From positions 459-64,458 of the forward strand of contig CAXMQV010000128.1 in the NCBI GenBank assembly GCA_964195905.1: a stretch of 64,000 nucleotides of DNA. Direction: 5' to 3'. The DNA is from an uncultured Gammaproteobacteria bacterium. Its GTDB lineage: Bacteria; Actinomycetota; Acidimicrobiia; Spongiisociales; SHLN01. Below, piece after piece: positions 1,294 to 63,710 of the stretch; position 1 is the first letter of the stretch, and each line of letters opens with the position of its first letter. A program made the position numbers and the translations under genes. The notes under the pieces were generated by a model. That model searched no databases. It worked only from the letters and a program-made list of their open reading frames with translations, and was not told the origin of the DNA.

Positions 1294-1328
1294 CCCGCTG
1301 CCCGCTGCCCGCTGCGCGCTGCCCGCTC
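1294..1328. repeat. Heptamer array (CCCGCTG)x3 plus 2 variants
   Basis: Read directly. Lies in the divergent DAK2/rpmB spacer. Confidence 0.9.
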
Positions 1329-1392
1329 AGAGGCAACTGGACAGGGCCTTTTCCGCTGTCCGTGCTACAGTTCCGCCGCTTGGAGGTCTCGA

Positions 1393-1581
1393 ATGTCAGC
1401 TATTTGTGAAGTGTGCGGGAAGAAGCCGTGGTTCGGCAAACAGGTCAGCTTCTCCCATAAGCGGTCCAGCCGTCGCTGGGATCCGAACATTCAACGCGTC
1501 CGGGTCAAGGACGGCACCAACTCCAAGCGGGTCCGCGCCTGCACTTCCTGCATCAAGGCCGGCAAGGTCGAGAAGGTTTAG
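1393..1581 (+). CDS. rpmB: 50S ribosomal protein L28
   Basis: 62 aa, [38 protein letters not shown].., the typical L28 sequence. GGAGG lies upstream of the ATG. Confidence 0.95.
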
Positions 1582-1583
1582 GA

Positions 1584-1596
1584 AGCCCTTCGGGCT
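1584..1596 (+). terminator. Weak hairpin just after the rpmB stop (agccc-ttc-gggct), no U-tract
   Basis: 5-bp GC stem 3 nt after the stop codon. Followed by a heptamer array, not by T residues. Confidence 0.25.
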
Positions 1597-1598
1597 GC

Positions 1599-1675
1599 CG
1601 TCACCGGTCACCTGTCACCGGCTTCCCAGCGGTCACGGTCACCTGTCACCGGCTTTTCAACGGTCAACGGTGGGC
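1599..1675. repeat. Heptamer-derived tract (GTCACCG/GTCACCT/GTCAACG) with an internal duplicated block ggtcacctgtcaccggctt
   Basis: Read directly. Fills the convergent spacer after rpmB. Confidence 0.8.
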
Positions 1676-2652: not shown

Positions 2653-2690
2653 CCCCCGGCAGCATGGTTCCCGCTCATTGCCCCCGAAGG

Positions 2691-3938: not shown

Positions 3939-3951
3939 TGGAGGACCCTAG

Positions 3952-3972
3952 CCAGCTACCAGCCACCAGCTA
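3952..3972. repeat. Heptamer array CCAGCTA CCAGCCA CCAGCTA
   Basis: Read directly. Confidence 0.75.
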
Positions 3973-4115
3973 CCCGCACGGCGGGAACGGGGTTTCGCTG
4001 GGCCTGGCGCCGGCGGCGCCGGCCGTCCCTACGATTGACGTCCGGCGGTAGCATTCGGATTTCTCCGCCCGATCGCGCGCTAGACATGGCGCGGCGGAGA
4101 AATCGAGAGGAAGAA

Positions 4116-4331: not shown

Positions 4332-4366
4332 GTCACCGGTCACCGGTCACCGGTCACCGGTCACCA
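4332..4366. repeat. Heptamer array (GTCACCG)x4 plus GTCACCA
   Basis: Begins 4 nt after the csp-like stop codon. Confidence 0.95.
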
Positions 4367-9244: not shown

Positions 9245-9329
9245 GCATGTCCTCCCTCGCCGCAGGTCGGGGGCCATGCTATCGGTTGCCCGCGGTCCGC
9301 CGTCGGCTCTCGGCGATCGATCGGCAACA

Positions 9330-9385
9330 GTCAACGGTCAACGGTCAACGGTGGGCGGTGGGCGGCGGGCAGTGGGCGGTCGGCT
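9330..9385. repeat. Heptamer array (GTCAACG)x3, (GTGGGCG)x2, GCGGGCA, GTGGGCG, GTCGGCT
   Basis: Eight in-phase units read directly. Confidence 0.95.
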
Positions 9386-9749: not shown

Positions 9750-9799
9750 GGAGAGAGGCTACATCCGGTTGCCGACCACGAAGCGCTTGCCGGTCATTC

Positions 9800-9820
9800 G
9801 TTGCCCGCTACCCGTTGCCC
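9800..9820. repeat. Heptamer array GTTGCCC GCTACCC GTTGCCC
   Basis: Read directly. Confidence 0.8.
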
Positions 9821-9883
9821 GACAGCGTTGCTCTGGTAGCGAGCTCGCAACGCGAGCTGGGAAAGATGTTCGGGTGCGGATGG

Positions 9884-9915
9884 CGGGGAGCGGGGAGCGG
9901 GGAGCGGGGAGCGGG
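9884..9915. repeat. Heptamer array (CGGGGAG)x4
   Basis: Read directly. Lies 15 nt upstream of the amidohydrolase start. Confidence 0.95.
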
Positions 9916-11110: not shown

Positions 11111-11386
11111 ATGGGGCGCTTGGAACGACGACTCTTGACTATCGGCGATCAGCTCGACGATCTCCGGGAGGAGGAGCGGCTCCTCACCGAGGAGCTCGCC
11201 TATCACCGATCCCTGGCCGATGACGCCGCCCGAGACGCCGCCGTATTCGACGACCCGATCGAACGGGAGAACGCCGCCATGACCTCGGGTGATGTTCAAC
11301 GATCCGAGCGCCGCCTCGAGAAGCTCGCCGACCGGCGCCAGAAACTCGAAACCCGCCGGGCTCGGTGGCTGGAGAAGCTGGAGTAA
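11111..11386 (+). CDS. Hypothetical coiled-coil protein
   Basis: 91 aa, charged heptad-like sequence. Starts 9 nt after the amidohydrolase stop. Confidence 0.5.
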   Translation: MGRLERRLLTIGDQLDDLREEERLLTEELAYHRSLADDAARDAAVFDDPIERENAAMTSGDVQRSERRLEKLADRRQKLETRRARWLEKLE

Positions 11387-11407
11387 CCAGACCCCAGACC
11401 CCAGATG
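11387..11407. repeat. Heptamer array (CCAGACC)x2 plus CCAGATG
   Basis: Starts at the stop codon of the 11111-11386 gene. Confidence 0.85.
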
Positions 11408-11428
11408 AAGCGTGTCGTAGCTCTTGCT

Positions 11429-11477
11429 GGTGACCGGTGACCGGTGACCGGTGACCGGGGACCGGGGACTGGTCGCC
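11429..11477. repeat. Heptamer array (GGTGACC)x4, GGGGACC, GGGGACT, GGTCGCC
   Basis: Seven in-phase units. Reverse complement of the GTCACCG family. Confidence 0.95.
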
Positions 11478-11487
11478 CGCAGGCCGC

Positions 11488-16085: not shown

Positions 16086-16559
16086 CAACCACAAGCATCG
16101 GTCTCTTGGTGCCGGATGCGCCAGGGGCAGGTGGCACCATCCGAAGGGCCGAAGCTACTTTGGTTGAAAAGCCAAAATCGTCCGAGGACCCAAGATCCCA
16201 GACCCCAGACCCCAGACCAGCGGGCCACGGCAACCCCCCGGCAACCCGAAGGCGTTGCCGGGGTCTTGGAACAGTCGGACGCGGAAAACCCCGGTTGAGC
16301 GTCGGCCGAAACCTTCGCCCCTCCGGGGCTTCCGTCCGAAGCGGCCCGAGGGCTGCTCCGATTCCTCTCCGTTTGGCCGAAGCCTCCCGGTGAGGGACCT
16401 CTCTGGTCGGCCGAAACCTTCCTTCGAGGTAGTGGCTTCGCCAGCGTCCGAGTGAGCCCGAAGGCCCTCTTGGCCGTTCCCCTTGCGGGGCGTCCGACGA
16501 AGCCGCTCCTCCGACCCTTGCGAGCCTTCGGAGCGTGTGTTGAGGTTTCCCTCAGCACT
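16086..16559 (-). ncRNA. Candidate long structured 5' leader of the cytidylate-kinase-like operon
   Basis: Lies between the predicted promoter (16566-16594) and the start codon, with no credible ORF. Minus-strand hairpins ggcUUCGgcc (16375-16384), gccUUCGggc (within 16456-16467) and ccccGCAAgggg (16479-16490). Contains a (GTCTGGG)3 array. Confidence 0.3.
16190..16217. repeat. Heptamer tandem array: ccaagat cccagac x3
   Basis: Four in-phase 7-nt units read directly from the sequence. Confidence 0.9.
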
Positions 16560-16565
16560 TGAAAG

Positions 16566-16703: not shown

Positions 16704-17591
16704 ATGGGCGATTTCTTGAGCGATCCGGAACACCAGTGGCAGGTTCGAATGCTTGCCACGCTAGCGGTCCTGATTGCCACCATCATCGTCCGGCTCTTCG
16801 TCCTGAGGATGGTGCGCCGTCGGGTCGTAGACACCGAGATCTGGTACCGCACCCAGAAGGTAACGAGCTACGCGGGTACATTCATCGTCCTCCTTGTCAC
16901 GAGCTTCGTGTGGCTCCGGGTCAGCAATGTCGGCGCTTGGATCGGCGTGGCGTCTGCCGGTATCGCAATCGCACTGGCCGACGTTCTCCGGAATTTCGTC
17001 GGTCTCAGCTACATCCTGATCCGCCGTCCCTTCAAGATCGGCGATCGGATCGAAATCGACGGCCAAGCAGGCGACGTCGTCGACGTGCGGGCGCAGCGGT
17101 TCTCGCTGCTCGAGATAAAGGGATGGGTCGACGCCGACCAGTCGACCGGCCGCATCATTCAGATCCCGAATGGTCTGCTATTCAGCAAGCCGCTCGCCAA
17201 TTACACCGAAGGCTTCCCCTACATCTGGCACGAGATCCCGATGCTCGTTACCTTTGAGTCCGACTGGAAGCGGGCCGAAGCACTGATGACCGAGGCGCTC
17301 GGCGAGCACGCTCCCAGCATGGCGTCGGAGGAGGCCCGCAAGGCCATCCGGGAGGCGGCCACCGAGTATCGGATCCGCTACACCCATCTCACGCCCACAA
17401 CGTATGTGACTGTCAAAGACAGCGGCGTGATGATCACCGGCCGCGCCATCATTCCGGTCAGGTCGCGCCGCCACGTTGACTCCACCATCTGGCGGTCGCT
17501 GTTAGAGAAGCTCGACGCCGAGCCGAGTGTGGAGCTCGCGTATCCGACGGTACGGACGTATTTGCCGGAGCTGAGGGTCACGCGACAGTAG
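16704..17591 (+). CDS. Mechanosensitive ion channel family protein (MscS-like)
   Basis: 295 aa, three N-terminal TM spans, then ..RRPFKIGDRIEIDGQAGDVVDVRAQRFSLLE..GRIIQIPNGLLFSKPLANYT.., the MscS beta-domain signature. Confidence 0.9.
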   Translation: MGDFLSDPEHQWQVRMLATLAVLIATIIVRLFVLRMVRRRVVDTEIWYRTQKVTSYAGTFIVLLVTSFVWLRVSNVGAWIGVASAGIAIALADVLRNFVGLSYILIRRPFKIGDRIEIDGQAGDVVDVRAQRFSLLEIKGWVDADQSTGRIIQIPNGLLFSKPLANYTEGFPYIWHEIPMLVTFESDWKRAEALMTEALGEHAPSMASEEARKAIREAATEYRIRYTHLTPTTYVTVKDSGVMITGRAIIPVRSRRHVDSTIWRSLLEKLDAEPSVELAYPTVRTYLPELRVTRQ

Positions 17592-17640
17592 GCATCCGGC
17601 ATCCGGCATCCGGCATCCGGCATCCGGCATCCGGCATCCG
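17592..17640. repeat. Heptamer tandem array (GCATCCG)x7
   Basis: Seven perfect units beginning one nt after the mscS stop codon. Confidence 0.95.
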
Positions 17641-18420
17641 GCAAGCATCGTTACCCGGTTACCCGAAGAAGACCACCATCGAGGCGTGTCGCGCTGGGAA
17701 GGGGTTTCTCTGGACCTGGCGCAGGCGGCGCCGGTCGTCCCACGGTCGGCTGTCCTGCGGTAGCAGTCGACTTTTCAGCCAGTGGCGCGCCGGATCCAGG
17801 GCTCGACCGAAAAGTGACAGAGGGCATCGCGCGGAAAATCCCGAGTGAGCCTCGGCCGTGACCAAAACCCTCTCGGGATGTTTCCGCTGCCGGGCGGCTC
17901 CCTTGCGGGTGCCGTGCCGGCGGTTTCCGCCCGAGGTCGGTGCCCGAAGGCCCGTGTCCCTTGCGGCGCCGAAGCGTTTTTGGCGCTTCAGCGTTCCAGC
18001 GTCGCTGGCCCGACGACCTTGCGGTCATCGAGTGCCGGTCCGAAGCCGCGCCCTTGCGGGTCTGGCCCTCGCCGACTCTCATCCTCCGCCGAAGCGGTGA
18101 ACGAGTCGTGGTCTCCCGGCGACTATCTGAGCCTTGTGAGCCCATCCAGCCGGCCCGATCGGGGCCCGGGTGGCCACTCCCCACGATCGCGAATCGTAGG
18201 GCCCGGTCCGGTTTTGACACCTTTCCAGGACTCCGGTCCGGCTTTTAGACCTTCCCAGAGATCCGGTTGGGCTTTCGCCCTTCCAGTCCAGTCGGGCTGT
18301 TACACCCTTCTGGGGTCCGGCCGGGCTTTCGCCCTTCCGGGGTTCTCACAAACCTTTCGATCTGCAAGCCTGCCGTCCACTTTCGCTTCCGGCCGGGTCG
18401 TTCCGGTTGCCCGGGCGACA
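17641..18420 (-). ncRNA. Candidate large structured non-coding RNA (no ORF, own promoter)
   Basis: Downstream of TTGACG-N17-TACATT. At least eight GC-clamped hairpins have UUCG, GCAA or GAAA loops on the minus strand only (17900-09, 17942-51, 17967-76, 18015-26, 18051-60, 18086-97, 18269-80, 18324-35). Confidence 0.3.
18203..18346. repeat. Degenerate ~30-nt tandem repeat, 5 copies (CCGGYCSGG-YTTT..CCTTYCCAG..)
   Basis: Copies at 18203-32, 18233-62, 18263-92, 18293-316 (24 nt) and 18317-46. No unique spacers lie between the copies. Confidence 0.7.
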
Positions 18421-18426
18421 AAGACA

Positions 18427-18455
18427 AATGTACGGGCGAACCTCCGCACCGTCAA
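18427..18455 (-). promoter_or_regulatory. Putative sigma-A-type promoter TTGACG-N17-TACATT (minus strand)
   Basis: Reverse complement of 18421-18460 reads ctcatTTGACGgtgcggaggttcgcccgTACATTtgtctt. Confidence 0.5.
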
Positions 18456-18471
18456 ATGAGATTGGTAGTTA

Positions 18472-18540: not shown

Positions 18541-18645
18541 GTTCCCCGTTCCCCGTTGCCAGGTGACAGTTGACCGTTGACCGTTGCCAGGTGACCGGTG
18601 ACAGTTGACCGGTGACAGTTGACCGGTGACAGTTGACCGTTGACC
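18541..18645. repeat. Mosaic heptamer array, 15 in-phase units (GTTCCCC, GTTGCCA, GGTGACA, GTTGACC, GGTGACC)
   Basis: Read directly. All 15 units keep a 7-nt register across 105 nt. Confidence 0.95.
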
Positions 18646-18689
18646 TCCGAATTACATTCGTGTCACTCTCGTCCCGTATAGTGCCGGAT

Positions 18690-31358: not shown

Positions 31359-31978
31359 GGCTACTATTTCGACCACTCTTAGTGGTGGTTTGAGGACTAT
31401 TGACGAATAGCACGTTGTAGCTAGACAGTTGACAGTTGGTGGAGTCACCGCTTTGGGTGGTGAACTCGTTACTCGCGGCCCGAATTCCTCCCCTCCATGG
31501 GGTGTCGGGTCGCGGTTGGGTGCGACACCTGGATCCGGGTTTGAATTCCCCTCCCTCAGGGAGGGGGCGAACCCTCCGGGTTCGGAGCTCCGACGAAGGA
31601 GGAGCCGGAGTGGGCCTCTCGGGCGAATCACCCGTGTTTCGCTCGGGTGTTGATAGGTGCAGTGGAGACTCATCCCAACCCCGCTGACGCTCGGCCACTC
31701 AGAACCACCGAATGTGACGCATCACTCGCGAAGCACGACCCATGAGGGAGGGGTGGCCGAGCGAAGCGAGGTCGGGTGGGAGAGGCCAGGAAGCCACCAA
31801 CCGACGAGATCGTTGACGACCCCATGCCTCCCCCCATCCGACCTCGGCGAAGCGCCGAGCCCACCTTCCCCTCAAGGGGGAGGAAGAAGATCGGGTGAGG
31901 TGAACGCAGCAGATCACCTCCGGGGGAAGAAAGGCGGTCGGCGGTCGGCGGCAACGCCTCCGGCGTTCGGGTCAGTCC
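31359..31978. other. ORF-free, hairpin-dense 620-bp spacer
   Basis: Perfect stems: 31502-07/31523-28, 31548-55/31559-66 (8 bp), 31629-34/31644-49, 31843-49/31853-59 (7 bp), 31953-58/31962-67. Also short heptamer runs at 31424-44 and 31933-53. Confidence 0.6.
31953..31967 (-). terminator. Hairpin aacgcc-gga-ggcgtt 12 nt downstream of the ychF stop
   Basis: Perfect 6-bp stem. No U-tract, so the function is inferred. Confidence 0.3.
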
Positions 31979-49809: not shown

Positions 49810-50064
49810 ATGGAGAATGAAGTGACTCAACGCCAGCTTCGCAATGACAGCGGCGAGATCATGCGAGCCCTCGATCGAGGGACGTCGTTCGTCGTTACCC
49901 GCAACGGCGTACCGGTTGGCGAGCTGATCCCGGTGCGCAGCCATCGCTTTGTGCCCGCCCAAGAGGCTCTGGCGGTCTTCCGAAACGCGCCGGCCATTGA
50001 CGGAGAACGGCTGCGCTCCGACCTCGCTCGCTGGGTCGATCAGGACCTCCCGTCCGGTGGATGA
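49810..50064 (+). CDS. Type II antitoxin, Phd/YefM family
   Basis: MENEVTQRQLRNDSGEIMRALDRGTSFVVTRNGVPVGELIPV.. is the typical prevent-host-death N-terminus. Overlaps the downstream PIN gene by 8 nt. Confidence 0.85.
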   Translation: MENEVTQRQLRNDSGEIMRALDRGTSFVVTRNGVPVGELIPVRSHRFVPAQEALAVFRNAPAIDGERLRSDLARWVDQDLPSGG

Positions 50065-50479
50065 CGCAGCGCCCGAGCGCGGGCTCATCGACACCTCCGT
50101 GGTCATCGACCTCGAGCGGGTTGATCCGACCTCCTTGCCGGCTGAGCTCGCCGTCTCGGCGATAACCCTCGCCGAACTGGCCGCCGGCCCGCACGCCACC
50201 GACGACCTCGCCGAACGCTCTCGGCGCCAGGACCGGCTGCAGCGAGTCGAAGCGACCTTCGATCCCCTTCCCTTCGACGATGCCGCTGCCCGAGCGTACG
50301 GGCGGATCTACGCAACGGTCGTGCAGGCCGGGCGCAAAGCCCGAGGAGCTCGAGTCGTGGACCTCCTCATCGCGTCAACCGCTCTCGCCAACGACCTGCC
50401 GCTCTACACGAACAACATTGCGGATTTCTCGGGGCTCGGCGATCTGCTCGAAGTCAGGACACCCACCCGGACCGATTGA
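50057..50479 (+). CDS. vapC: Type II toxin VapC (PIN domain ribonuclease)
   Basis: GTG start; ..GLIDTSVVIDLE.. (first acidic residue), ..ITLAELAAG.., ..DLLIASTALANDLPLYTNNIADF.. is a PIN signature. Confidence 0.85.
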   Translation: MDDAAPERGLIDTSVVIDLERVDPTSLPAELAVSAITLAELAAGPHATDDLAERSRRQDRLQRVEATFDPLPFDDAAARAYGRIYATVVQAGRKARGARVVDLLIASTALANDLPLYTNNIADFSGLGDLLEVRTPTRTD

Positions 50480-51736: not shown

Positions 51737-51785
51737 CGGAGAGGCTATCGGCGGACCGGCAGTACTGAATCTCCTGTCCTCCAGC

Positions 51786-51827
51786 GGTGGGCGGTGGGCG
51801 GTGGACGGTCGGCCCCGGCCGGTGGGC
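51786..51827. repeat. Heptamer array (GGTGGGC)x2, GGTGGAC, GGTCGGC, CCCGGCC, GGTGGGC
   Basis: Read directly. Lies in the divergent spacer upstream of the first UMF1 gene. Confidence 0.85.
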
Positions 51828-51857
51828 TGTGAAGAATTCCCCTACGATCCCTCCTCA

Positions 51858-53897
51858 ATGAGCTACCAACCGGCATACGAAGGCATCGACGAGGCCGAAT
51901 ACCAGAAGCGCATCCGAGCCTGGACCATGTACGACTGGGCCAACTCGGCGTTTGCCACCACCATCCTGGCGGCCGTTCTCCCCATCTATTACAGCCAGGT
52001 GGCCGGCGACACACTTCCGAGCGCGGCGGTGGCCACCGCCTACTGGACTGCCGGCCTGAGCATCGCCCTGTTCATCGTCGCCATCATCTCGCCCATCCTC
52101 GGCACCATCTCGGACATCCGTCGCGGGAAGAAGAAGTTCCTCTCCATCTCCGTTGGGGTCGGCGTGGTCGCCACCGGCTTGCTCGTCTTCGTCGGTTCGG
52201 GCGACTGGTTCCTCGCTTCGATCCTGTTCATTGTCGGCCGGGTCGGATTCGGCGCCGCCAATGTCTTCTACGACTCACTGCTCCCCCATGTGGCCAGGGA
52301 AGAGGACCAGGACCGGGTTTCGACGCGCGGCTACGCCATGGGGTATCTGGGCGGCGGCCTCCTGCTTGCCCTCAACGCTGCCATGATCTTCATCATCGGC
52401 CCCGAAGGCGGTGCCCGCCTCTCCTTCCTCTCGGTGGCGGTGTGGTGGGCGGTGTTCTCGATTCCCATCATGCGCCGGGTCCCGGAGCCGCCATCGGACA
52501 CCGAGGAACTAGCTGAAGGCGAATCCCTCTTGAGGGTCAGCTTCGGTCGATTGAAGGAGACCCTGGCCCACATCCGGCGCTTCAAGGAGTTGTTCCGCTT
52601 CCTCATCGCCTTCCTCATCTACAACGACGGCATCGGCACGATCATCGGGGTAGCCGCCATCTACGGTGCCGAGCTTGGCTTCGGCGCCACCGAACTGATC
52701 CTGGCCTTGCTCCTGGTCCAGTTCGCCGGCATACCGTTCGCTCTCATCTTCGGCAGGATTCCGGACCCGGCCGAGACCCGACGCCGGGCCTTCCTGGCCT
52801 TCATTGTCTTCAACGCCGTCGCACTTCCTCTTGTCGGGATCATCGGGGCCAGGGTCCTCGACGCCGACACCGTCGGCCGACCGGGCGCTCCGTTTGAGAC
52901 CTCAGGAGCCTTCGTCGGCGAAGGCGAGTACGGAGCGGATTCGTTCGGAGTTCAGCCGGCGGGGGCCTGGGAGCTCAGGACGGCAGACGAGCTGGGGACC
53001 GGCGCTCGCCGGGACTACGGCTTCACCGAGTCGATCGGCAGCCAGATCCGGTTCACATTCACCGGCCGCGAGATCGAAGTCGCTTACCGCACCGGGCCCG
53101 ACGGTGGCAGCCACACGGTGCTCGTCGACGGGCTCGAGCCGACCGAAATCGACGGGTTCACCATCGACGCATACGAGCCGGACCCAACCGAGCCAACCGG
53201 CGAGGACGGACTCACCATCGACGGCTACAACAGCAAGGAGCGGTTCGAGGAGATCGCCCGCATCGACGTCGGCACACCTGGCGAGCACGAGCTCATCCTG
53301 GTCAGCCTCAAGAACCTCGACGACGAGCGCTCCGGCACCGTCATGGGCATTGGCCGAATCGAAGTCCTCGATCCCACCCGTACCTCCAGCCTGGGAACGA
53401 TCCTCGGCCTGCTCGTCATCATCGAATTGATCGGTCTCGGCTTCGCGTTCGGGCCCGGCAAGAGTCTCGTAACCGGGCTCATCGAGCGGTTCGACACGAA
53501 GCACACGATCCTGCTGTCACTGGTCGTCTACGCCATCATCGCGGTGTGGGGATTCACCCTCAACGCCGTGATCGAGTTCTGGTTCCTCGCCTTCATGGTG
53601 GCAACCGTTCAAGGTGGCAGCCAAGCCCTGAGCCGCAGCCTCTATGCCTCCATGTCGCCGACCTCCCAGAGCGGAGAGTTCTTCGGCTTCTTCTCCATCA
53701 TGTCGAAGTTCTCGGCGCTGATCGGGCCGCTCGTGTTCTTCGGAGCCGTCCAGGCCTTCGGGTCGAGCCGCCCCGCCGTGCTGGCCATCATCGTGTTCTT
53801 CATAACCGGTGGGCTCTTGTTGAATCGGGTCGATGTCGAGGAGGGCCGCCGGGTCGCCCGGGCCGCCGACGCCGGCGGGCTCGACGACGAAACCTGA
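51858..53897 (+). CDS. MFS transporter, UMF1/Atg22-like, with inserted TM-ectodomain-TM module
   Basis: ..RIRAWTMYDWANSAFATTILAAVLPIYY.. is the UMF1 N-terminus. About 14 TM spans, with a ~175-aa soluble insert encoded at about 52860-53390. Start trimmed to the ATG at 51858. Confidence 0.8.
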   Translation: MSYQPAYEGIDEAEYQKRIRAWTMYDWANSAFATTILAAVLPIYYSQVAGDTLPSAAVATAYWTAGLSIALFIVAIISPILGTISDIRRGKKKFLSISVGVGVVATGLLVFVGSGDWFLASILFIVGRVGFGAANVFYDSLLPHVAREEDQDRVSTRGYAMGYLGGGLLLALNAAMIFIIGPEGGARLSFLSVAVWWAVFSIPIMRRVPEPPSDTEELAEGESLLRVSFGRLKETLAHIRRFKELFRFLIAFLIYNDGIGTIIGVAAIYGAELGFGATELILALLLVQFAGIPFALIFGRIPDPAETRRRAFLAFIVFNAVALPLVGIIGARVLDADTVGRPGAPFETSGAFVGEGEYGADSFGVQPAGAWELRTADELGTGARRDYGFTESIGSQIRFTFTGREIEVAYRTGPDGGSHTVLVDGLEPTEIDGFTIDAYEPDPTEPTGEDGLTIDGYNSKERFEEIARIDVGTPGEHELILVSLKNLDDERSGTVMGIGRIEVLDPTRTSSLGTILGLLVIIELIGLGFAFGPGKSLVTGLIERFDTKHTILLSLVVYAIIAVWGFTLNAVIEFWFLAFMVATVQGGSQALSRSLYASMSPTSQSGEFFGFFSIMSKFSALIGPLVFFGAVQAFGSSRPAVLAIIVFFITGGLLLNRVDVEEGRRVARAADAGGLDDET

Positions 53898-53936: not shown

Positions 53937-56084
53937 ATGGGCGCCGGAGTAACTGAGAGGGCCATACGGGTGGGGCGGAGAACTGCCGGGCTCAAACGAG
54001 CCGAGTACAACAAACGCGTGCGGGCCTGGTCCTTTTATGACTGGGCAAACTCAGCGTTCGCAGTCGTCGTTCTGGCGGCCGTGCTCCCCACCTACTTCGT
54101 AGATGTGGCCGGAACCAGCCTCGACAGCCCGCAAACGGCTGCCGCCTATTGGGCGATCATCATCGCGATCAGTCTGGTGCTCGTTGCCGTTCTGGCCCCC
54201 ATTGTCGGGACCATGAGCGACGTCATGCGGGGCAAGAAGTACCTGCTGGCATTCTTCACGCTCGTGGGCGTCGGGGCCACCGGCAGCCTGTTCTTCGTGA
54301 ACACCGGCGATTGGCAGCTGGCGGGCGGTCTCTTCATCATCGGTCGCCTCGGTTTCGGGCTCGCCAACGTGTTCTACGACAGCCTCCTCCCCCATGTCGC
54401 GGTCGAAGAGGACCAGGACCGGGTTTCCACCCGGGGTTATGCCTTTGGATATCTCGGTGGTGGCCTCTTGCTCGTGATCGCGGTTGGTCTCATCCTCACC
54501 CTCCCCGATGAGGACAACCTCGGAGTCCGGGTGGCGTTCGTGGCGGTGGCGGCGTGGTGGCTGCTGTTCTCCATTCCCATCCTCCGGCGCCTGCCTGAGC
54601 CGCCGGCGGCCGCCGCCAAGCTCGCTCGGGACTCATCGGTCGTGCGCACCAGCTTCGGCCGGCTCCGCACAACGTTTCGGAACATCCGCACCTACCGGGA
54701 GCTCACCAAGTTCCTCTTCGCGTTCCTCCTCTACGACAACGGTATCGGCACGGTCATCGCGCTCGCCGTCGTCTACGGCGCCGAGCTCGGCTTCGGCACT
54801 CTCGAGCTGATCGGGGCGCTCGTTCTCGTACAGTTCGTCGGCATCCCGTTCACGCTCATGTTCGGTGCCGTCACCGACGAGCAGTCACGACGCCGCGGCC
54901 AGATCCTCACCCTCCTCGTCGTGAACATCATCGCCGTACCCGCCCTCGGCATCGCCGCCGCCCACACGCTCGAGCGCGATACGGTCGGACGCCCTGACCC
55001 GGCGTTTGAGGCCATCGGTCCCTTCGTCGGCGAAGGGGAACACAACTCGACCATCGCCGAATTCACGAGAACCGGTGATTGGCGGGTCATCGGCCAGGAC
55101 GACCTGCCCGCCGGGGCCCGCTCCGACTACGTGGCGGCAGGCGCCGCCGGATCGCGGATCGACATCCCCTTCAACGGGCAGCGCATCACCTTCAACCACT
55201 CCGAGGGAGCCGACCACGGGACCTGGGACGTACTCATGGACGGCGCACCCTTGCTCGAAGACGGCGAACCGATCATCATCGACGCCTACCGACCGACGGT
55301 CCGGTTCGAGGTGCCCGAGGCGTATGAGGCCGATACCGAAGGCACCCACACCCTCAGCCTCATCAGCTCCTCTGAGAGGAATCCGGCGGCGATCGGGACC
55401 GTGATTGCCATCGGCCAGATCGAGGTCCTCCCCCCGGCTCGCGCCTCGAACCTCGCAGTCATTCTCGGATTACTCGGTGTGGTACTGGCAGCATCGCTGG
55501 TGGCGGCCGCCCTCTTCGGCAAGCGACTCAACGACCTCGCCGCGCGACTCGATTCGAAGCGCACGATCCTTCTCACGCTCGCCGTCTACACAGGGATTGC
55601 GGTGTGGGGATACTTCCTCGACACAGTCATTGAATTCTGGTTCCTCGCCTGGGCGGTCGCCATCGTCCAGGGCGGGAGCCAGGCGCTCAGCCGCAGCTTG
55701 TATTCGACCATGGCGCCTGCGTCACAAAGCGGCGAGTTCTTCGGGTTCTTCACAGCGGTGGCCCGCTTCGGTGCGGTCATCGGCCCGCTCCTGTTCGCCG
55801 GAGCGGTTGCGGTGTTCGACAACAGCCGGCCGGCCGTGGCCAGCCTGGCCGTTTTGTTCATACTCGGCGCCGTGGCGCTGTCGCGGGTCAATGTGCATGA
55901 GGGGAGAATGGCGGCCGCCTTCCACGACCTGACCGCTCTCAGCTACCCACGGCACGTGGAGGGTGGGTTGACCAACTATGGCCGGCCCGAATCACTCCCA
56001 GAAGCTGCGCAGGGCTTCCGTGAACGCATCAGGTCGCTCAATCGGGCCGAGGTGCCCGGCCCCGGGGACGACGAGAAACTCTGA
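53937..56084 (+). CDS. MFS transporter, UMF1/Atg22-like paralog with the same inserted module
   Basis: ..RVRAWSFYDWANSAFAVVVLAAVLPTYF... Colinear with the upstream paralog, including the insert encoded at about 54975-55450 (DTVGRP..FVGEGE..IGQIEVL). Confidence 0.8.
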   Translation: MGAGVTERAIRVGRRTAGLKRAEYNKRVRAWSFYDWANSAFAVVVLAAVLPTYFVDVAGTSLDSPQTAAAYWAIIIAISLVLVAVLAPIVGTMSDVMRGKKYLLAFFTLVGVGATGSLFFVNTGDWQLAGGLFIIGRLGFGLANVFYDSLLPHVAVEEDQDRVSTRGYAFGYLGGGLLLVIAVGLILTLPDEDNLGVRVAFVAVAAWWLLFSIPILRRLPEPPAAAAKLARDSSVVRTSFGRLRTTFRNIRTYRELTKFLFAFLLYDNGIGTVIALAVVYGAELGFGTLELIGALVLVQFVGIPFTLMFGAVTDEQSRRRGQILTLLVVNIIAVPALGIAAAHTLERDTVGRPDPAFEAIGPFVGEGEHNSTIAEFTRTGDWRVIGQDDLPAGARSDYVAAGAAGSRIDIPFNGQRITFNHSEGADHGTWDVLMDGAPLLEDGEPIIIDAYRPTVRFEVPEAYEADTEGTHTLSLISSSERNPAAIGTVIAIGQIEVLPPARASNLAVILGLLGVVLAASLVAAALFGKRLNDLAARLDSKRTILLTLAVYTGIAVWGYFLDTVIEFWFLAWAVAIVQGGSQALSRSLYSTMAPASQSGEFFGFFTAVARFGAVIGPLLFAGAVAVFDNSRPAVASLAVLFILGAVALSRVNVHEGRMAAAFHDLTALSYPRHVEGGLTNYGRPESLPEAAQGFRERIRSLNRAEVPGPGDDEKL

Positions 56085-58136: not shown

Positions 58137-59405
58137 TTGTCCGATACCACCACTATGCGTAGTCTCTCCGGCATGCTTCGCCTTGCCACGGCCGTTGCCG
58201 TGCTCGCCGCGGTGCTTGTCGCCCCCTCATCTCCGGCCCTGGCCGCCGAGTTTCCTGCCCCTGCGGTCGATGGCATCTACCCGATGGTGTTCCCGGTCGG
58301 CGGCGCAACCCATTTCACCAACACCTTTGGAGCCTGGCGTTCGGTCGACCGCACCCACGAAGGCACCGACATGATGGCCGACAAGATGGTCCCGGTGGTG
58401 GCGGCGGCTTCGGGGACGATCGGGTGGGTCTCGAACACCTGCTGCGCGCTTGAAATCGAGCATGACGACGGCTGGTCGAGCATGTATATCCACCTCAATA
58501 ACGACACCCCCGGTACCGACGACGGCCTTGGCTGGGGCATCATGCCCGGGTTGGTACGTGGTGTCCACGTCGAGGCCGGCCAGCTCATCGGGTGGGTAGG
58601 CGATTCGGGCAACGCAGAATCGACCGGATCGCATCTCCACTTCGAGCTCCATACGCCGGATGGTGCGGCCATCAGCTCGTACGAACACCTCCTCGAAGCC
58701 CGGGGGGCGGCCGAAGGCCGCGACGTGGCTGCCTACGTCGACGCCGGCTCGCGCTTCTACCGTCCAACGGTGCTCGGCGGGGCTCCGGAATGGTTCTACT
58801 TCGGCCTCCCGGATGATGTCCCCCTCATGGGCGACTGGGACTGCAACGGGACGAGGACCCCGGCCATGTACCGGGCGTCGAACGGCTTCGTCTATCTAAC
58901 CAATGCCAACGAATTCGGCGTCGCCGAGTCGGAGTTCTTCTACGGCATCCCCGGTGACATCCCGATCGCCGGCGACTGGAACGGCGACGGCTGCGACACT
59001 TTTGCCATCTACCGCCCAAGCGAAGGCAAGTTCTACGCCCGCAACTCGCTCGAGACCGGCATCGCCGACTTCAGCTTCACATTTGGCGTACCGGGCGACC
59101 AGCCCTTCGCCGGCGACTTCGACGGTGACGGAATCGACACCGTCGGCATGTACCGACTCCGCAACGGCCTTGTCTACTACCGCAACCAAAACGAAACCGG
59201 GACCGCCGACAAGCAGTTCTTCTTCGGAGCCCCCGGCGACAATATCGTGGCCGGCGACTGGGACGGCGATGGCGATGACACGGTGGCCATCTATCGGCCA
59301 TCCACTGGCTACCTCGTCGTGAACATGGAGAACAACACCGGGCCCACCGAGTACTCGTTGTGGGTGGGCAACTACGAGACAGTGGTGGCCTCGACGGGGA
59401 GCTGA
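58137..59405 (+). CDS. Secreted M23 peptidase with four C-terminal GDWDGDG-type repeats
   Basis: Signal-like N-terminus. M23 motifs ..HEGTDMMA.. and ..GSHLHFELH... C-terminal repeats LMGDWDCNGTRTPAMYR, IAGDWNGDGCDTFAIYR, FAGDFDGDGIDTVGMYR, VAGDWDGDGDDTVAIYR. Confidence 0.85.
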   Translation: MSDTTTMRSLSGMLRLATAVAVLAAVLVAPSSPALAAEFPAPAVDGIYPMVFPVGGATHFTNTFGAWRSVDRTHEGTDMMADKMVPVVAAASGTIGWVSNTCCALEIEHDDGWSSMYIHLNNDTPGTDDGLGWGIMPGLVRGVHVEAGQLIGWVGDSGNAESTGSHLHFELHTPDGAAISSYEHLLEARGAAEGRDVAAYVDAGSRFYRPTVLGGAPEWFYFGLPDDVPLMGDWDCNGTRTPAMYRASNGFVYLTNANEFGVAESEFFYGIPGDIPIAGDWNGDGCDTFAIYRPSEGKFYARNSLETGIADFSFTFGVPGDQPFAGDFDGDGIDTVGMYRLRNGLVYYRNQNETGTADKQFFFGAPGDNIVAGDWDGDGDDTVAIYRPSTGYLVVNMENNTGPTEYSLWVGNYETVVASTGS

Positions 59406-59410
59406 ATCCG

Positions 59411-59480
59411 GTCACCGGTCACCGGTCACCAGTCACCAGTCACCAGTCACCTGTCATCGGCATCCGGCATCAGGCATCCG
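59411..59480. repeat. Heptamer array, 10 units grading GTCACCG to GTCACCA to GTCACCT to GTCATCG to GCATCCG
   Basis: Read directly. Begins 6 nt after the M23 gene stop. Confidence 0.95.
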
Positions 59481-59647
59481 CGTTCCCGCCGAGAAATGAG
59501 AACGCAATCGACGGAAGCCGGAAAGCGAGCCCAGCGAGCGCCGGACAGCCACCCAATGGCGGTGGGCGGTGGGAAACCGACTATTGGCCCTTGAAAACCC
59601 TGCTGGGCAAATGCACGCTCTTGCCCTGAGACGAAGGAGGCCTGACT

Positions 59648-60136: not shown

Positions 60137-60145
60137 GCCGTCCCC

Positions 60146-61915
60146 TCAGTCGGGCTCGAGTCCCGCTCCGCGCGACCACACCTCGACCAGGCGGGCATAG
60201 GGCCCTCCGGCTGCCACCAGGTCGGCATGACGGCCTTTGGCGATGATCCGTCCGCCATCCATCATGACGATCCGATCGGCCCGCTCGGCCGAGTTGAGGC
60301 GATGGGCAATCACGATGGCGGTGCGTGAATTCAGCACAACGTTGAGAGCGCGTTCCACCTTGGCTTCGGTCTCGGGGTCGAGGTTGGATGTCGCCTCGTC
60401 AAGGACGATGACGGCCGGGTCGGCCAGAAAAGCCCGCGCCAAAGCGACCAGCTGGCGCTCCCCGGCCGAGAAGCGGCTGCCCCGCTCGCGCACCTCGGTG
60501 TCGAGCCCGTCGGGGAGGGAGTCGACCCAATCATCAATTCCCATCTCGATGCACACTGCCCGAATCTGGCGGTCGTCGGCCTCGGGCCTGGCGTACCGGA
60601 GGTTGTCGCGCAGCGTGCCGTTGAAGAGGAAGCCCTCCTGGGGGATGAGGCTGATGGTGCGAGAGCGACTGGCGAACGTCAGATCTCGCAGGTCGTGGCC
60701 GTCCACCGACACCGAGCCACTCGTCGGGTCGTAGAACCGAAGCAGCAGCTTGGCGATCGTCGTCTTGCCTGCGCCGGTCTCCCCCACCACCGCCACCCGT
60801 TCTCCCGGTGCTACCGACATGTCGATGTCACTCAGGACGGGCGCCCCCGGCACGTACTCAAAGCCGACCGCATCGACCTCGATGCCGCCGCTCGCGCCTG
60901 GAGCGACATCGATTGCTGCCGGTCCTTCGACGATGGATGGGGTTGTATCGAAAAGGCGGAACACCTTCCCGAGGGCGGCCACCGCCGACTGGACCTGGTT
61001 GTAGATGTGAGACAGCTGGATAATCGGCTGGAAGAACCAGTCGAGATAGAACAGAAAGGCCACCAGCGACCCGAATGACAGATCGCCCTCCAGCACCCGC
61101 CGCCCGCCGAAGAACAGAACGGCGCCGATGGCAACCGTGCGCAGGAATGCCACCCCCGGGAAGTACCAGGCGATCGCCTTGGCGGCCCGCATGTTGGCCT
61201 CGTAGTAGTCCTCGTTTATCCGCCCGAACGCCCCGGCTTGCTCCCCTTCCTGAGTGAAGGCTTGCACGACCCGCACGCCGGTGATGCCCTCCTGGAGGCT
61301 GCCGAGCACTCGCCCGATGGCCTCGCGCACGTCGCGATAGGCGCGGCTGGCAAAACGCTGGAACACGAAGCTGGTGGCGAGTACCACCAGGATGATCCCG
61401 AACACGATGACGGCCAGCCGCCAATCGACCGCCACCATGACGACCGCCACTCCGACCACCGTGAGCAAGCTGGTCAGGAACGTAACCGCCCCCTCCTCGA
61501 CGAACTCGGTGAGGGACTCGATGTCATTGGTCATGCGGCTCACAAGCACCCCGGCCTTTGAGCGAGAGAAGAACCCCATGTCCAACGAGACAAGATGCCG
61601 GAATAATGTGGTGCGGAGAAGGAGGAGGTATCTCTCACCCAGCCAGGCGACCGAGAACTGGGCGAGGCGCTGGGCGAAGTACTGAATGGCGAGCAGGACG
61701 AGAAAGACGAGGGCCGCAGTGGTGATGGCCCCTTTGTCGTTGGCGCCGATGCCGTCGTCGATGCCACTGCGCACTGCCAGAGGCCCGAGCAAGCGGGCCA
61801 TCGTGGCCAGCAGGGCGGCAGCCAGGGCGCCGATCGCCGGCCATTTGAGCTCGGCGCCCAGAAGTGCCGATCGTCGCAGCAGCGAGCGCTGCGTCTCAAT
61901 GACAGGGGTCATCAC
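60146..61915 (-). CDS. ABC transporter permease/ATP-binding fusion protein (exporter half-transporter)
   Basis: Six N-terminal TM spans. Walker A GETGAGKTT, signature FSAGERQLVALARA, Walker B VIVLDEATS. Confidence 0.9.
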   Translation of the reverse strand: MMTPVIETQRSLLRRSALLGAELKWPAIGALAAALLATMARLLGPLAVRSGIDDGIGANDKGAITTAALVFLVLLAIQYFAQRLAQFSVAWLGERYLLLLRTTLFRHLVSLDMGFFSRSKAGVLVSRMTNDIESLTEFVEEGAVTFLTSLLTVVGVAVVMVAVDWRLAVIVFGIILVVLATSFVFQRFASRAYRDVREAIGRVLGSLQEGITGVRVVQAFTQEGEQAGAFGRINEDYYEANMRAAKAIAWYFPGVAFLRTVAIGAVLFFGGRRVLEGDLSFGSLVAFLFYLDWFFQPIIQLSHIYNQVQSAVAALGKVFRLFDTTPSIVEGPAAIDVAPGASGGIEVDAVGFEYVPGAPVLSDIDMSVAPGERVAVVGETGAGKTTIAKLLLRFYDPTSGSVSVDGHDLRDLTFASRSRTISLIPQEGFLFNGTLRDNLRYARPEADDRQIRAVCIEMGIDDWVDSLPDGLDTEVRERGSRFSAGERQLVALARAFLADPAVIVLDEATSNLDPETEAKVERALNVVLNSRTAIVIAHRLNSAERADRIVMMDGGRIIAKGRHADLVAAGGPYARLVEVWSRGAGLEPD

Positions 61916-63663
61916 GACAGCACCTCTTCCTGGGCTAGGACTTCGCCGTACCGGGGAACGGTCCGCAACAACTCGTCATGGGTCCCGACGGCGACGATGG
62001 CCCCCTCGTCGAGAAACACGACCCGGTCGACCAGGCTGAGCGTCGAGGTCCGGTGCGCGATGATGATGGTGGTCCGCCCTTCCATAACGTGTTCGAGCGC
62101 CGCCAGCATCTCGGATTCCACAATGGCATCCACCGAGGAGGTGGCATCGTCGAGGATGAGCACCCTGGGATCGCGCAGAACCGCCCGGGCCAACGCCACC
62201 CGCTGGCGCTGACCGCCCGACAGCGAGTGGCCGCGCTCACCAACAACAGTGTCGTATCCGTCGGGGAGATCGCAGATGAATCGGTGCGCCTGGGCGAGCC
62301 GAGCTGCCAGTCGCACCTGCTCGTCGGTGGCGGCCGAATTGCCGAACGCGATGTTGTCGCGCACCGGCGCCGAGAACAAGAAGGTTTCCTGGAACACCAG
62401 TGCTACCTCGCTACGAAGCTCGTCAAGTGGCACATCCCGCACGTCGACTCCATCGAGAGAGACCACGCCGGACGTTGGATCGTAGAACCGGGGTATGAGG
62501 TGAGCCAGGGTCGTCTTCCCCGAGCCGGTCGACCCGACCAGAGCGGCCGAGGTGCCGCCCGGTATAACGAGATCAACCGACTCGAGCACCGGCGGGCCCC
62601 CCGGGTAGGAAAAACCCGTGCCCGAAAAGCGGACTTCGCCGGAGCCATGCGACAGGGGCTGCGGTTTGCGACTGCTCGTAATCTCGGGCGCCTCGGCCAG
62701 CAGGACCTGGATGCGAGTAGCTGCTGCGCCCGCCCGGGGAAGCTGGGCGAAGAACCACCCGGTAATGCGAAGCGGGAACACGAGCACGGCCAGATACTGC
62801 GTGAATGCCACGAACTCACCGATGGTGAGGTCACCGTCGACGACCCGGAAACCGCCCAGCCAGAGGACAGACACCAGGGCCAGAGACGGAATGAGCTCAA
62901 AGAGTGGCGCGAACTTCGACCGAAGGCGCACGAGCGTCATGCTCTCGTCATAGATCTCGGTCGCCGTCGCTTCAAGTCGGGCCGACTCCTGGTGTTCCTG
63001 ACCGTAGGCCTTGACCACCTGGATGCCACCCACCGCCTCCTCAACCACTTCGCTCAAATCCGCAAGCCGCTCCTGCACCCGGAATGACACCTGAATGACT
63101 TTCCCGGCAAACCGATTCGCCGATCCGAACAGGGCCGGCACCGCCAGGGACGCCACTGCACCAAGCACCGGGTCGATCGCAATGAGGACGGTCACGACGA
63201 TGCCGAGCATCGCCACATTCGCGATGGTGATGGGAAGCATGGCGAACACGAGCCGGACCTGGGAAAGGTCGCTCGAGGCGCGGGCCATGAGCTGGCCGGT
63301 ACTGGTCCGATCGTGGAAGTTGAACGCCAATCGCTGAAGATGCTCGAACATCCGGTTGCGAAGGTCGGTCTCGGCTCGATAGGACAGCTTGAATCCGAAG
63401 TAGCGTCGCACCCCGATGCCGATCCCCTGCAGGAGGCCGGCGAAGATGAGCCAGCCAACGAGCGGGGCGATCCGATCCCGATCCCCAGCCGAGATGGCGT
63501 CATCGATGATGGAGCCGACGAGATACGGGATCGCCACCAGCGCCGCCATCCACAGCAGGGCACCGGCAATGGCGAACGCCGAGACTCGCCGGTAGCCAAG
63601 GAGGGTCCGCCCGATGAGCCCCAGCCCGGAGCGAACTTCTGGGCTGCGGAGACCGGTGGACAT
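61912..63663 (-). CDS. ABC transporter permease/ATP-binding fusion protein (partner half-transporter)
   Basis: Walker A GSTGSGKTT, signature LSGGQRQRVALARA, Walker B VLILDDATS. 4-nt overlap with the downstream paralog implies a heterodimeric exporter. Confidence 0.9.
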   Translation of the reverse strand: MSTGLRSPEVRSGLGLIGRTLLGYRRVSAFAIAGALLWMAALVAIPYLVGSIIDDAISAGDRDRIAPLVGWLIFAGLLQGIGIGVRRYFGFKLSYRAETDLRNRMFEHLQRLAFNFHDRTSTGQLMARASSDLSQVRLVFAMLPITIANVAMLGIVVTVLIAIDPVLGAVASLAVPALFGSANRFAGKVIQVSFRVQERLADLSEVVEEAVGGIQVVKAYGQEHQESARLEATATEIYDESMTLVRLRSKFAPLFELIPSLALVSVLWLGGFRVVDGDLTIGEFVAFTQYLAVLVFPLRITGWFFAQLPRAGAAATRIQVLLAEAPEITSSRKPQPLSHGSGEVRFSGTGFSYPGGPPVLESVDLVIPGGTSAALVGSTGSGKTTLAHLIPRFYDPTSGVVSLDGVDVRDVPLDELRSEVALVFQETFLFSAPVRDNIAFGNSAATDEQVRLAARLAQAHRFICDLPDGYDTVVGERGHSLSGGQRQRVALARAVLRDPRVLILDDATSSVDAIVESEMLAALEHVMEGRTTIIIAHRTSTLSLVDRVVFLDEGAIVAVGTHDELLRTVPRYGEVLAQEEVLS

Positions 63664-63682
63664 CCACCCAGACTAAAGAGTC

Positions 63683-63710
63683 GCTACCCGCTGCCCGTTG
63701 CCCGTTGCCC
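63683..63710. repeat. Heptamer array GCTACCC GCTGCCC (GTTGCCC)x2
   Basis: Read directly. Followed by the 10-bp inverted repeat 63712-21/63738-47. Confidence 0.9.

Follow-up and report, generated by a model that had tools for sequence, protein, structure and literature searches.

Why the microsatellites of non-coding bacterial DNA favour steps of 7 nt has been asked since 2007, mostly in cyanobacteria and Xanthomonas. The same question is raised by a 64,000-nt stretch of contig CAXMQV010000128.1 (assembly GCA_964195905.1, positions 459 to 64,458; the window in what follows), a housekeeping part of the chromosome of an uncultured Acidimicrobiia species, in which an earlier note made from the letters alone had listed 18 intergenic loci with in-phase heptanucleotide tandem repeats. 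We show here that these arrays are a new example of known bacterial heptanucleotide microsatellites, and that the novelty attributed to them in the note was estimated too high. As to their origin, the balance leans slightly towards arrays that expand by slippage, draw on a library of units shared by the clade, and evolve fast instead of being conserved as signals.

Array coordinates and copy numbers were taken from Tandem Repeats Finder (TRF), and the units were then written out in heptad register. TRF reports 22 period-7 rows covering 18 loci (735 nt), and by both procedures each of the listed loci is present, 0-5 nt from the position first given for it. At period 7 there are 13 perfect tandem runs, defined as at least 2 copies plus 5 nt, where dinucleotide-preserving shuffles predict 0.05, and none was found in the window at periods 5, 6 and 8-13. 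A mismatch-tolerant scan returns 14-16 arrays at period 7 and 0-1 at the same other periods. Such a comparison of periods had been proposed in the note; run on the window and on the loci of relatives, it finds period 7 enriched over other periods, the close relatives having 6 period-7 arrays and none at other periods. The arrays are also non-coding. In a window that is 88% coding, 734 of the 735 array nt are intergenic and a single nucleotide overlaps a stop codon, so that the statement that none lies inside a gene holds. These are the properties of long simple sequence repeats (SSRs), i.e. head-to-tail units of 5-11 nt in runs longer than composition predicts, a period of 7 in preference to its neighbours (here in the window and in relatives) and a non-coding location when the unit is not a multiple of 3. 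Periods of 4, 5 and 8 nt would break a reading frame equally, yet they are absent from the spacers, which argues that the 7-nt step belongs to the generating process and not to selection.

That almost every intergenic spacer is populated was an overstatement. Arrays occupy 13 of the 34 spacers of at least 30 nt and make up about 10% of the intergenic bases. Their spread is patchy, being dense at 1-19 kb and 51-64 kb and nearly nil at 19.5-51 kb, and the 8.6 kb upstream of the window, read in the same species, hold no arrays. They also avoid the two conserved structured RNA candidates described below. Three loci are weak. A rough estimate places (GACAGTT)x2.1 at 31424..31438 (TRF score 30; the unit is GTTGACA rotated) at chance level; (GGCGGTG)x2.3 at 59558..59573, 75 nt upstream of a flavodoxin gene, and (CGTTGCC/CGCTACC)x3.3 at 9799..9821 (75% matches), in a divergent spacer, are credible mainly through unit families seen elsewhere. 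The first of these, together with the frequent breakage of short-read contigs of the species within or beside arrays, is what can be said for chance or assembly artefact as the origin of the repeats. For the set as a whole this explanation is refuted and its probability negligible, given the excess of perfect arrays over expectation and the occurrence of identical arrays in at least six independent assemblies. The species recurs, at nucleotide identities of 98.6-100%, in two NCBI metagenome-assembled genomes (MAGs) and in several contigs from ENA and Logan, and because these independent assemblies reproduce the arrays, the objection that they are assembly artefacts is not upheld. The ends of contigs L204, L205, L083 and L209 lie within arrays or a few nt from them (window positions 11455, 1666 and 59487). 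That short-read assemblies of the species are fragmented at arrays fits the same units being multi-copy genome-wide.

The anatomy of the arrays, with a kept register, runs of variants and higher-order periods, is typical of satellite evolution. Written in heptads, composite arrays hold a single register across unit changes, variants come in blocks (for example GTCACCG x3 and then GTCACCA x3), and higher-order periods of 14, 21, 28 and 31 nt occur. At 1600..1671 a composite of GTCACCG and GTCACCT is arranged in a 31-nt higher-order repeat, followed by (GTCAACG)x2 (TRF periods 7 and 31), and fills the convergent spacer from the rpmB stop to the stop of a minus-strand gene. The array at 9325..9384, flanked by a minus-strand membrane gene (its stop) on one side and a FabI-like gene (its start) on the other, joins (GTCAACG)x4 to (GTGGGCG)x4-5 in one 8-unit register. 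Four GGTGACC followed by two GGGGACC make up 11429..11473, which abuts the stop of a convergent bPH/SHOCT gene, and at 18541..18645, flanked by two conserved divergent promoters, 16 units (GTTCCCC, GTTGCCA, GGTGACA, GTTGACC and GGTGACC) share one register with higher-order periods of 14 and 28 nt, GGTGACA, GTTGACC and GTTGCCA taking turns. Three GCGGTGG with degenerate units lie at 51784..51831, in the divergent spacer between a minus-strand GSDH gene and a plus-strand ATG22-MFS gene. The array at 59408..59480, starting 2 nt past the stop of an M23 peptidase gene, runs through (CCGGTCA)x3, (CCAGTCA)x3, CCTGTCA and (CGGCATC)x3 in one register, and 63682..63712, 19 nt upstream of the start of a minus-strand ABC transporter gene, consists of CGCTACC, CGCTGCC and (CGTTGCC)x2.

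The unit families that the note had described are correct, and they are significant. Among 24 units there are 15 identical pairs, counted up to rotation and strand, where 0.5 are expected, and 55 pairs within one mismatch against 8.3 expected; 2000 resamplings of intergenic heptamers from outside the arrays never gave more than 25. Single substitutions link the families in a chain (GGTGACC - GTTGACC - GTTGCCC - GCTGCCC - GCTACCC; also GGTGACC - GGGGACC), and an irregular tail, GGTGGGCGG.GG.C...GGTCGGC, is common to the arrays at 51784 and 9349 (family D6). The 22-mer GTCACCGGTCACCTGTCACCGG, common to the window, L003 and L123, was considered as proof of copying and set aside, as it is too likely by chance among GTCACCN variants.

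Relatedness of units far beyond chance, at unlinked loci and in sister species, is what a binding platform would lead one to expect, that is a clade-specific protein that binds DNA, single-stranded DNA or RNA with one heptamer per subunit, the library being kept by selection for insulation or nucleoid organisation. Cold-shock-domain proteins bind one heptanucleotide per domain (PMC4679880), and a cold-shock-domain gene lies directly upstream of a perfect array, (GTCACCG)x4.9 at 4332..4365 (TRF 100% matches), which starts 3 nt past its stop. For the heptamer repeats of Nostoc, too, a binding partner was postulated, and one array is conserved between the distant loci L027 and L034. However, unrelated units coexist with the main families (GGCATCC, GCGGGGA, CCAGACC, CCAGCTA), orientation and position relative to genes are inconsistent, most orthologous spacers of sister species are without arrays, distant Acidimicrobiia use quite different units, and no candidate protein was identified. 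A platform of this kind is therefore unlikely in our view. A protein or RNA-binding platform had been suggested in the note; for a strand-specific one, the orientation biases of the window on which it would draw are not reproduced in other genomes. In the window, the sense strand is C-rich at nine of nine arrays near 3' ends and G-rich at 7-8 of the 8 arrays near starts. Among 36 strongly skewed arrays of other genomes, where gene calls are crude, 9 at 3' sites are C-rich and 13 G-rich, against 12 C-rich and 2 G-rich at 5' sites, and GTCACCG, scored in about 70 arrays from metagenomes, has no orientation bias with respect to the gene upstream (26:25). A strand logic, in the form of Rho-loading sites or 5' G-quadruplex elements, was consequently dropped as a general rule.

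How quickly the arrays change can be read at three depths. Same-species strains (among them L081, L082, L083, L204, L208 and L209; 98.6-100% identical) allow 16 array comparisons, which contain two substitutions and two length changes, both of the latter in the 1600 array. Strain L082 is without exactly one 31-nt higher-order unit there, strain L083 has a 1-nt insertion, and no difference of plus or minus 7 nt was seen among strains that are 99-100% identical. One substitution is in strain L083 and makes (CCCGCTG)x4.9 at 1294..1327 (TRF score 61) perfect again; this array lies in the divergent spacer between FakA (minus) and rpmB (plus), 20 nt upstream of the FakA start. The other, in strain L204, falls in the perfect (GCGGGGA)x4.7 at 9883..9915, 15 nt upstream of the ATG of an amidohydrolase gene. 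The arrays at 4332 (in L081), 9325 (in L204), 59408 (in L208) and 59558 (in L208 and L209) are identical to those of the window. Altogether the 683 array nt have 4 events, whereas 18,472 nt of coding DNA have 21 and 1,644 nt of other spacer 0; the change rate per nt of the arrays is about fivefold that of coding DNA. The arrays are moderate hotspots and not hypervariable loci. At 95% identity an orthologous array already has 6 units in L016 and 4 in L020, and at about 77% identity, the distance of the sister species L001, L002, L003 and L004 from the window, whole arrays come and go, so that change scales with divergence. Five orthologous spacers of L001 and L002 are 12-70 nt long and array-free where the window has about 100 nt filled with arrays. 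The counterpart of the 9325 spacer, for example, measures 12 nt in L002 and 68 array-free nt in L001; the orthologues of the 4332 and 9883 spacers are without array in L001, L002 and L006. In L001, L002 and L004 there is no array at the sites of (GACCCCA)x4.6 (16187..16218, between the start of a minus-strand CMK-like gene and a structured RNA candidate on the same strand, at the 3' end of the latter) and of the perfect (GGCATCC)x7.6 at 17591..17643 (TRF score 106), which overlaps the last base of the MscS stop codon. Elsewhere the units themselves differ. The spacer at 18.5 kb has a GAGACCC array in L002, CAATCAG, CAATCGG and GACCGTC arrays in L004, and none in L001. The spacer with the 11429 array, in which (CCAGACC)x2.7 at 11387..11405 begins at the base after a TAA stop, is 15 nt long in L001, holds a GTCACCG array of opposite orientation in L003 and inverted GTCAACG arrays in L004. 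A further contig from this region, L206 (ENA ERZ21818092, 756 nt, about 1x coverage), encodes a 91-aa protein identical to that of window 11111-11386, its 557 coding nt being 99.3% identical, with the downstream spacer replaced by a stem-loop and (GTCAACG)3(GTCAACA)3. Because it has about 1x coverage and diverges at its 5' end also, it may be a recombinant strain or a chimeric contig, and it is not used as evidence.

These rates bear on the slippage-prone contingency element proposed in the note, in which 7-nt copy changes in promoters or 5' leaders would tune or switch adjacent genes. Several arrays lie 14-50 nt upstream of start codons, at 1294, 9883, 51784, 63682 and 3952 (the last being (CCAGCTA)x3.3 at 3952..3974, 14 nt upstream of a minus-strand MFS start in a divergent spacer with the cold-shock gene). 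The raised mutation rate, the restriction of strain indels to arrays and the difference in copy number at 95% identity agree with such a role, and there are precedents in the 7-bp repeats of Haemophilus hmw1A/hmw2A and in TTTTGAT of the Vibrio ctxAB promoter. However, 14 of the 16 comparisons among co-occurring, near-identical strains show no length change, so that the frequent copy-number differences between strains expected of phase-variable SSRs are not seen at 98.6-100% identity. The neighbours are housekeeping genes (rpmB, fakA, the ddl neighbourhood, transporters) and not surface or virulence genes, and for about half of the arrays, those found at 3' ends or in the space between convergent genes, phase variation has no obvious target. 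The array (GGCGGTC)x2.7 at 31933..31951 lies 28 nt downstream of the stop of YchF (minus). We regard contingency as very unlikely.

On a wider scale, array density is a lineage trait that falls with phylogenetic distance. The window has 2.0 strong period-7 arrays per 10 kb, the six closest relatives 0.7, other Acidimicrobiia 0.2, and Chloroflexota/Limnocylindria loci (485 kb) 0.0. At the same time at least 120 metagenomic contigs, with GC contents from 39 to 75% and no relation to the window, contain (GTCACCG)4, together with 73 further period-7 arrays of varied units. This scatter would suit the footprints of a mobile element, either resembling miniature inverted-repeat transposable elements (MITEs) or repetitive extragenic palindromes (REPs), or left as repeated 7-bp target duplications by a transposon with a preferred heptamer target. 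The sharing of units and of some junctions between unlinked loci, and the appearance of the arrays as insertions relative to sister species, point the same way. Yet there is no transposase or integrase, nor a RAYT-like gene, among the genes of the 64-kb window. The repeat families are made up of their periodic cores alone, with no conservation of the flanks and neither the terminal inverted repeats nor the unit-length copies that define MITEs and REPs. Each locus has its own copy number and mixture of units, and (GTCACCG)3 is essentially absent from viral contigs (1 match). A mobile origin is thus highly improbable. Viral contigs were also tried as a control for unit specificity and abandoned, two scrambled heptamers having 3 and 9 matches there, a result uninformative on bacterial genomes. 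One scrambled control, (GCTCCAG)n, forms long perfect arrays in several viral contigs (L215-L223, IMG/VR), with up to 8 consecutive 21-mers in L217.

Do the arrays punctuate transcription instead? Those at 4332, 11387, 17591 and 59408 begin -1 to 3 nt past stop codons, as had been noticed, and eight arrays abut stop codons in all. Hairpins that serve as terminators or insulators, built of quasi-palindromic GGTNACC arrays and inverted array pairs and lacking U-tracts, could be imagined in a lineage without canonical terminators. Four of the six GTCACC-family spacers tested fold better than shuffles (z = -1.9 to -2.8; z = -2.0 for the 4332 array), and the convergent spacer 11387-11487 folds whole as one long hairpin (z = -2.8 on the minus strand), in which the 11387 array pairs with the degenerate GGGGACC/GGGGACT end of the 11429 array. 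There are two inverted array pairs in the window, 11387/11457 and 9799/9883 (the latter a 26-nt inverted repeat, 9799-9824 and 9881-9906, 77% complementary), and similar ones in L002, L004 and L027. Canonical hairpins with U-tracts are no commoner than in shuffles (9 sites in the window vs 11.3 expected), with none at a gene end or an array. Against this, at least half of the arrays have no complementarity to themselves or to a partner (z >= 0). The GGCATCC, GCGGGGA, GGTGGGC, CGYTGCC and GACCCCA arrays show no excess structure (z = +0.3 to +1.6; +0.3 for 17591), and the two remaining GTCACC-family spacers no clear excess (1582-1674 on the plus strand, z = -0.5; 59406-59500, z = -0.8). No array is followed by a T-run, as an intrinsic terminator would be. 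Arrays are present in 6 divergent spacers out of 15, 2 convergent ones out of 5 and 5 tandem ones out of 14, and this equality of spacer types, with divergent promoter spacers as rich in arrays as 3' ends, gives no positional preference. Moreover, rpmB has a separate stem-loop of its own ahead of the 1600 array, and relatives manage with convergent spacers of 12-15 nt. We consider a terminator or insulator function improbable, and the punctuation signal suggested in the note fares accordingly. Taken together, the roles that it proposed (platform, punctuation, contingency) find little support, although single arrays may still have one of them.

Canonical G-quadruplex motifs (at least four tracts of three or more G with 1-7-nt loops) number 7 in the window, and at the motif level 4 of them are arrays, at 9353 (plus strand), 9885, 16189 (minus strand) and 63687 (minus strand), the other 14 arrays not fitting. 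The GTTGACC and GTTGACA arrays were considered as promoter arrays for their -35-like TTGAC and rejected, as the spacing to plausible -10 elements is wrong (7, 14 or 21 nt); a consensus promoter scan found no promoter at the arrays. An Rfam search of the window, with the gathering threshold and with E-values on sub-regions, found no match at the arrays or the scanned spacers.

We therefore return to heptanucleotide microsatellites that expand by slippage, and a plausible course of events can be sketched. A heptamer would be tandemly duplicated, or copied from another array by template switching, and the array would then grow or shrink by slipped-strand mispairing or unequal exchange in 7-nt or higher-order steps (14, 21, 28, 31 nt), new variants spreading block-wise inside it. 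Loci may exchange sequence or descend from one another, which would yield a small clade library of related units (roughly GKTSMCC and derivatives). Selection would purge arrays that disrupt reading frames, structured RNAs or core promoters, so that permissive spacer DNA would accumulate them, often until the spacer is filled up to the neighbouring stop codon. Abutment to stop codons would arise because arrays grow inside originally tiny spacers. The hairpins of the GTCACC family and the inverted pairs, and the G-quadruplex motifs of units with three to four G, would be by-products that may affect local expression without being what the arrays exist for. Of this course we infer slippage as the engine of growth and ectopic exchange between arrays, as we do the cause of the 7-nt step. 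The block structure of the arrays, indels in array units and rapid turnover are in line with it, as are the absence of mobile-element genes from the window and of any positional or strand logic or shared structure. Slippage with a preferred 7-nt step has been proposed for heptanucleotide SSRs across bacteria, in the accounts of it given in PMC4679880 and PMC4692102.

Several observations weigh against this explanation. Identical or one-step units at unlinked loci call for an extra step, be it ectopic copying, sequence-dependent expansion or selection. Pure slippage is likewise insufficient for the rare junction GTCAACGGTGGGC, present at both 1665 and 9346, and for the rare variant CGCTACC, present at both 9799 and 63682. 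Close relatives reuse units of the window (GTCACCG in L003, GTCAACG in L004), and (AGCTACC)4 after the M3 peptidase gene is kept in place and in unit between L027 and L034, two distant Actinomycetota/Acidimicrobiia loci at 79% identity, which also carry the unit class of the 3952 array (ACCAGCT). Recurrent inverted array pairs look like selected hairpins; templated quasi-palindrome correction could also make them. The arrays add about 100 nt to spacers that measure 12-15 nt in relatives, in a genome that is 88% coding. Expansion by slippage leaves the 7-nt preference and the strength of unit sharing unexplained. A bolder idea that would cover some of these points is a clade-wide heptad-reading system, with a related library kept at shifting spacers and coated by a multimeric protein that binds single strands or duplex, for instance one of OB-fold or cold-shock-domain type with a heptamer to each domain, which would insulate neighbouring transcription units, or stall or terminate RNA polymerase in a lineage that lacks canonical terminators. 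It fits the unit relatedness, the one conserved array and the inverted pairs; nothing directly supports it, and we give it only a slim chance. If true, it would be the first mechanistic explanation of the 7-nt preference in bacterial intergenic microsatellites.

The surroundings of the arrays deserve a description of their own. The window has a GC content of 64-65% and, by a curated gene map, an ordinary chromosomal gene set including FakA, ribosomal protein L28 (rpmB), a cold-shock protein, Ddl, a histidine kinase, an M3 peptidase (78-85% identical to proteins of Acidimicrobiia MAGs), MscS, AdnAB-like helicase-nucleases, SbcCD, YchF and ABC and MFS transporters. A search of the window for tRNA and tmRNA genes found none. 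Two unannotated, minus-strand structured RNA candidates flank the MscS gene next to arrays, and they may be more novel than the arrays themselves. The large one (about 600 nt, 17826-18420) is a candidate new structured RNA within a conserved block at about 17700-18510 that has no credible open reading frame (ORF) and is 74-83% identical in four Acidimicrobiia species. RNAalifold predicts 181 pairs on the minus strand, 22 of them with compensatory double changes among the four species, and many GNRA-capped hairpins. A conserved promoter-like TTGACG-N17-TACATT stands at 18455-18427. In the window copy, hairpin modules of about 27 nt are repeated in an additional block of 54 nt, and there is no match in Rfam 15 even at E <= 1. 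The second candidate (about 290 nt, 16276-16565), conserved in six species, has 96 predicted pairs, 11 of them compensatory across the six, with UUCG and GNRA loops, a promoter-like TTGACG-N17-TAGATT at 16594-16566 and likewise no match in Rfam 15. The two have a homologous 3' domain and look like paralogues flanking MscS, because a covariance model of the 3' 141 nt of the large RNA matches the second RNA and its orthologues in L001, L002, L005 and L006 (34-41 bits). An Ms1/6S-like RNA is, we presume, one possible identity of the second candidate.

An element of about 100 nt occurs both at 3983-4110, upstream of the cold-shock-domain gene, and at 17696-17830, beyond the 3' end of the large RNA, and also at corresponding places in L002, L005 and L081 with about 80% identity. 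Within the element lies a perfect 12-bp inverted repeat (4058-4069/4093-4104), and its sole Rfam match is sub-threshold, to aspS RNA (E = 0.047). In the region 18650-18692, a PD-(D/E)XK nuclease gene, the first of a DUF488-AdnA-AdnB-like operon, has GTGTCACTC-N8-TATAGT upstream (conserved in L001, partly in L002). This promoter-like motif ends 7 nt before the ATG, which implies a leaderless mRNA, and we take it to resemble the actinobacterial RecA-independent (PafBC-type) DNA-damage promoter. Tandem paralogous ATG22/MFS genes (51858-53897 and 53937-56084) share DNA blocks that are 72-74% identical and about 2.06-2.1 kb apart. The only sizeable tandem repeats within coding DNA of the window are in frame, namely three 141-nt units in the M23 peptidase gene (58908-59300) and two 132-nt units in a PD40 beta-propeller gene (27575-27833). 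At 49810-50479 a small ORF is followed, with an 8-nt overlap, by a PIN-domain gene, likely a VapBC-type toxin-antitoxin pair.

For the question of the 7-nt step, the lineage is a dense high-GC example in which sister species are nearly array-free, strains co-occur and the library of related units is small. It is therefore suited as a natural system for separating mutational from selective causes. In practical terms the arrays break short-read assemblies of these MAGs, and they would serve as strain markers.

How do the arrays compare with heptamer repeats described so far? Single-locus contingency repeats, such as those of Haemophilus hmw1A/hmw2A, Vibrio ctxAB and E. coli K1 neuO, likewise have 7-nt units near promoters or 5' ends and a copy number that varies by slippage. 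Unlike them, which show a demonstrated expression read-out and high variability between strains, the arrays here are genome-wide, stand beside housekeeping genes and mostly do not vary between strains that co-occur. In the library model of eukaryotic satellites, related species share repeat families that are differentially amplified or lost at each locus. Concerted evolution, block-wise variants and higher-order repeats are common to both, whereas the arrays measure tens of nt instead of kb to Mb and lie in prokaryotic spacers under strong selection for compactness. The analogy drawn in the note with the STRR sequences (short, tandemly repeated and repetitive) of heterocystous cyanobacteria is apt, both being tandem intergenic heptamers that are dispersed over many sites, fall into several unit families within one genome and form composite arrays. 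CCCCAGT, TTGGTCA and CAACAGT, which we take to be STRR units, are within 0-2 mismatches of CCCCAGA, CCGGTCA and CAACGGT/CAACAGT here. STRRs, too, sometimes form hairpins (PMC4692102), but phylum and base composition differ (65% GC here), our source is an acidimicrobial and not a heterocystous cyanobacterial host with canonical STRR1-3 units, and there is no sign of common descent. The heptamers GGGAATC of Xanthomonas and GGGGAYT of Nostoc are G-rich and form G-quadruplexes. They resemble the present arrays in being intergenic, in flanking the same genes in relatives with varying length and sequence, and in some inverted pairs (PMC4692102). However, only a minority of the arrays here have a motif that could form a G-quadruplex, and the dominant GTCACCG/GTCAACG family cannot. 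Regulatory effects have been reported for Nostoc heptamer repeats, without a mechanism, and Chloroflexus has heptamer arrays of GATAGRA. Marine Beggiatoaceae, some cyanobacteria and Bacteroidetes carry TAACTGA direct repeats, which are abundant intergenic heptamers as well, are mixed with others in some genomes and are places where assemblies break (PMC4679880). In contrast to that single dominant AT-rich unit, which mostly lies directly upstream of starts in a preferred orientation, the arrays here have many units and no positional or reproducible orientation preference. Lastly, there is a likeness to the long SSRs of Mrázek, Guo & Shah (2007). In the accounts of that study available to us, heptanucleotides are the most abundant class of 5-11-nt long SSRs in many prokaryotes, the ten richest genomes include three Actinobacteria, and a hypothesis of slippage set by the polymerase footprint is offered (Mrázek 2007 via PMC4679880, PMC4692102). 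The view that no equivalent had been described outside cyanobacteria is thus outdated, although our literature search found no report of heptamer arrays in Acidimicrobiia. As far as those accounts go, a period-7 excess, a non-coding location and a phylogenetically patchy occurrence are common to both, and what the present arrays add is turnover between strains and species and a shared unit library, documented locus by locus.

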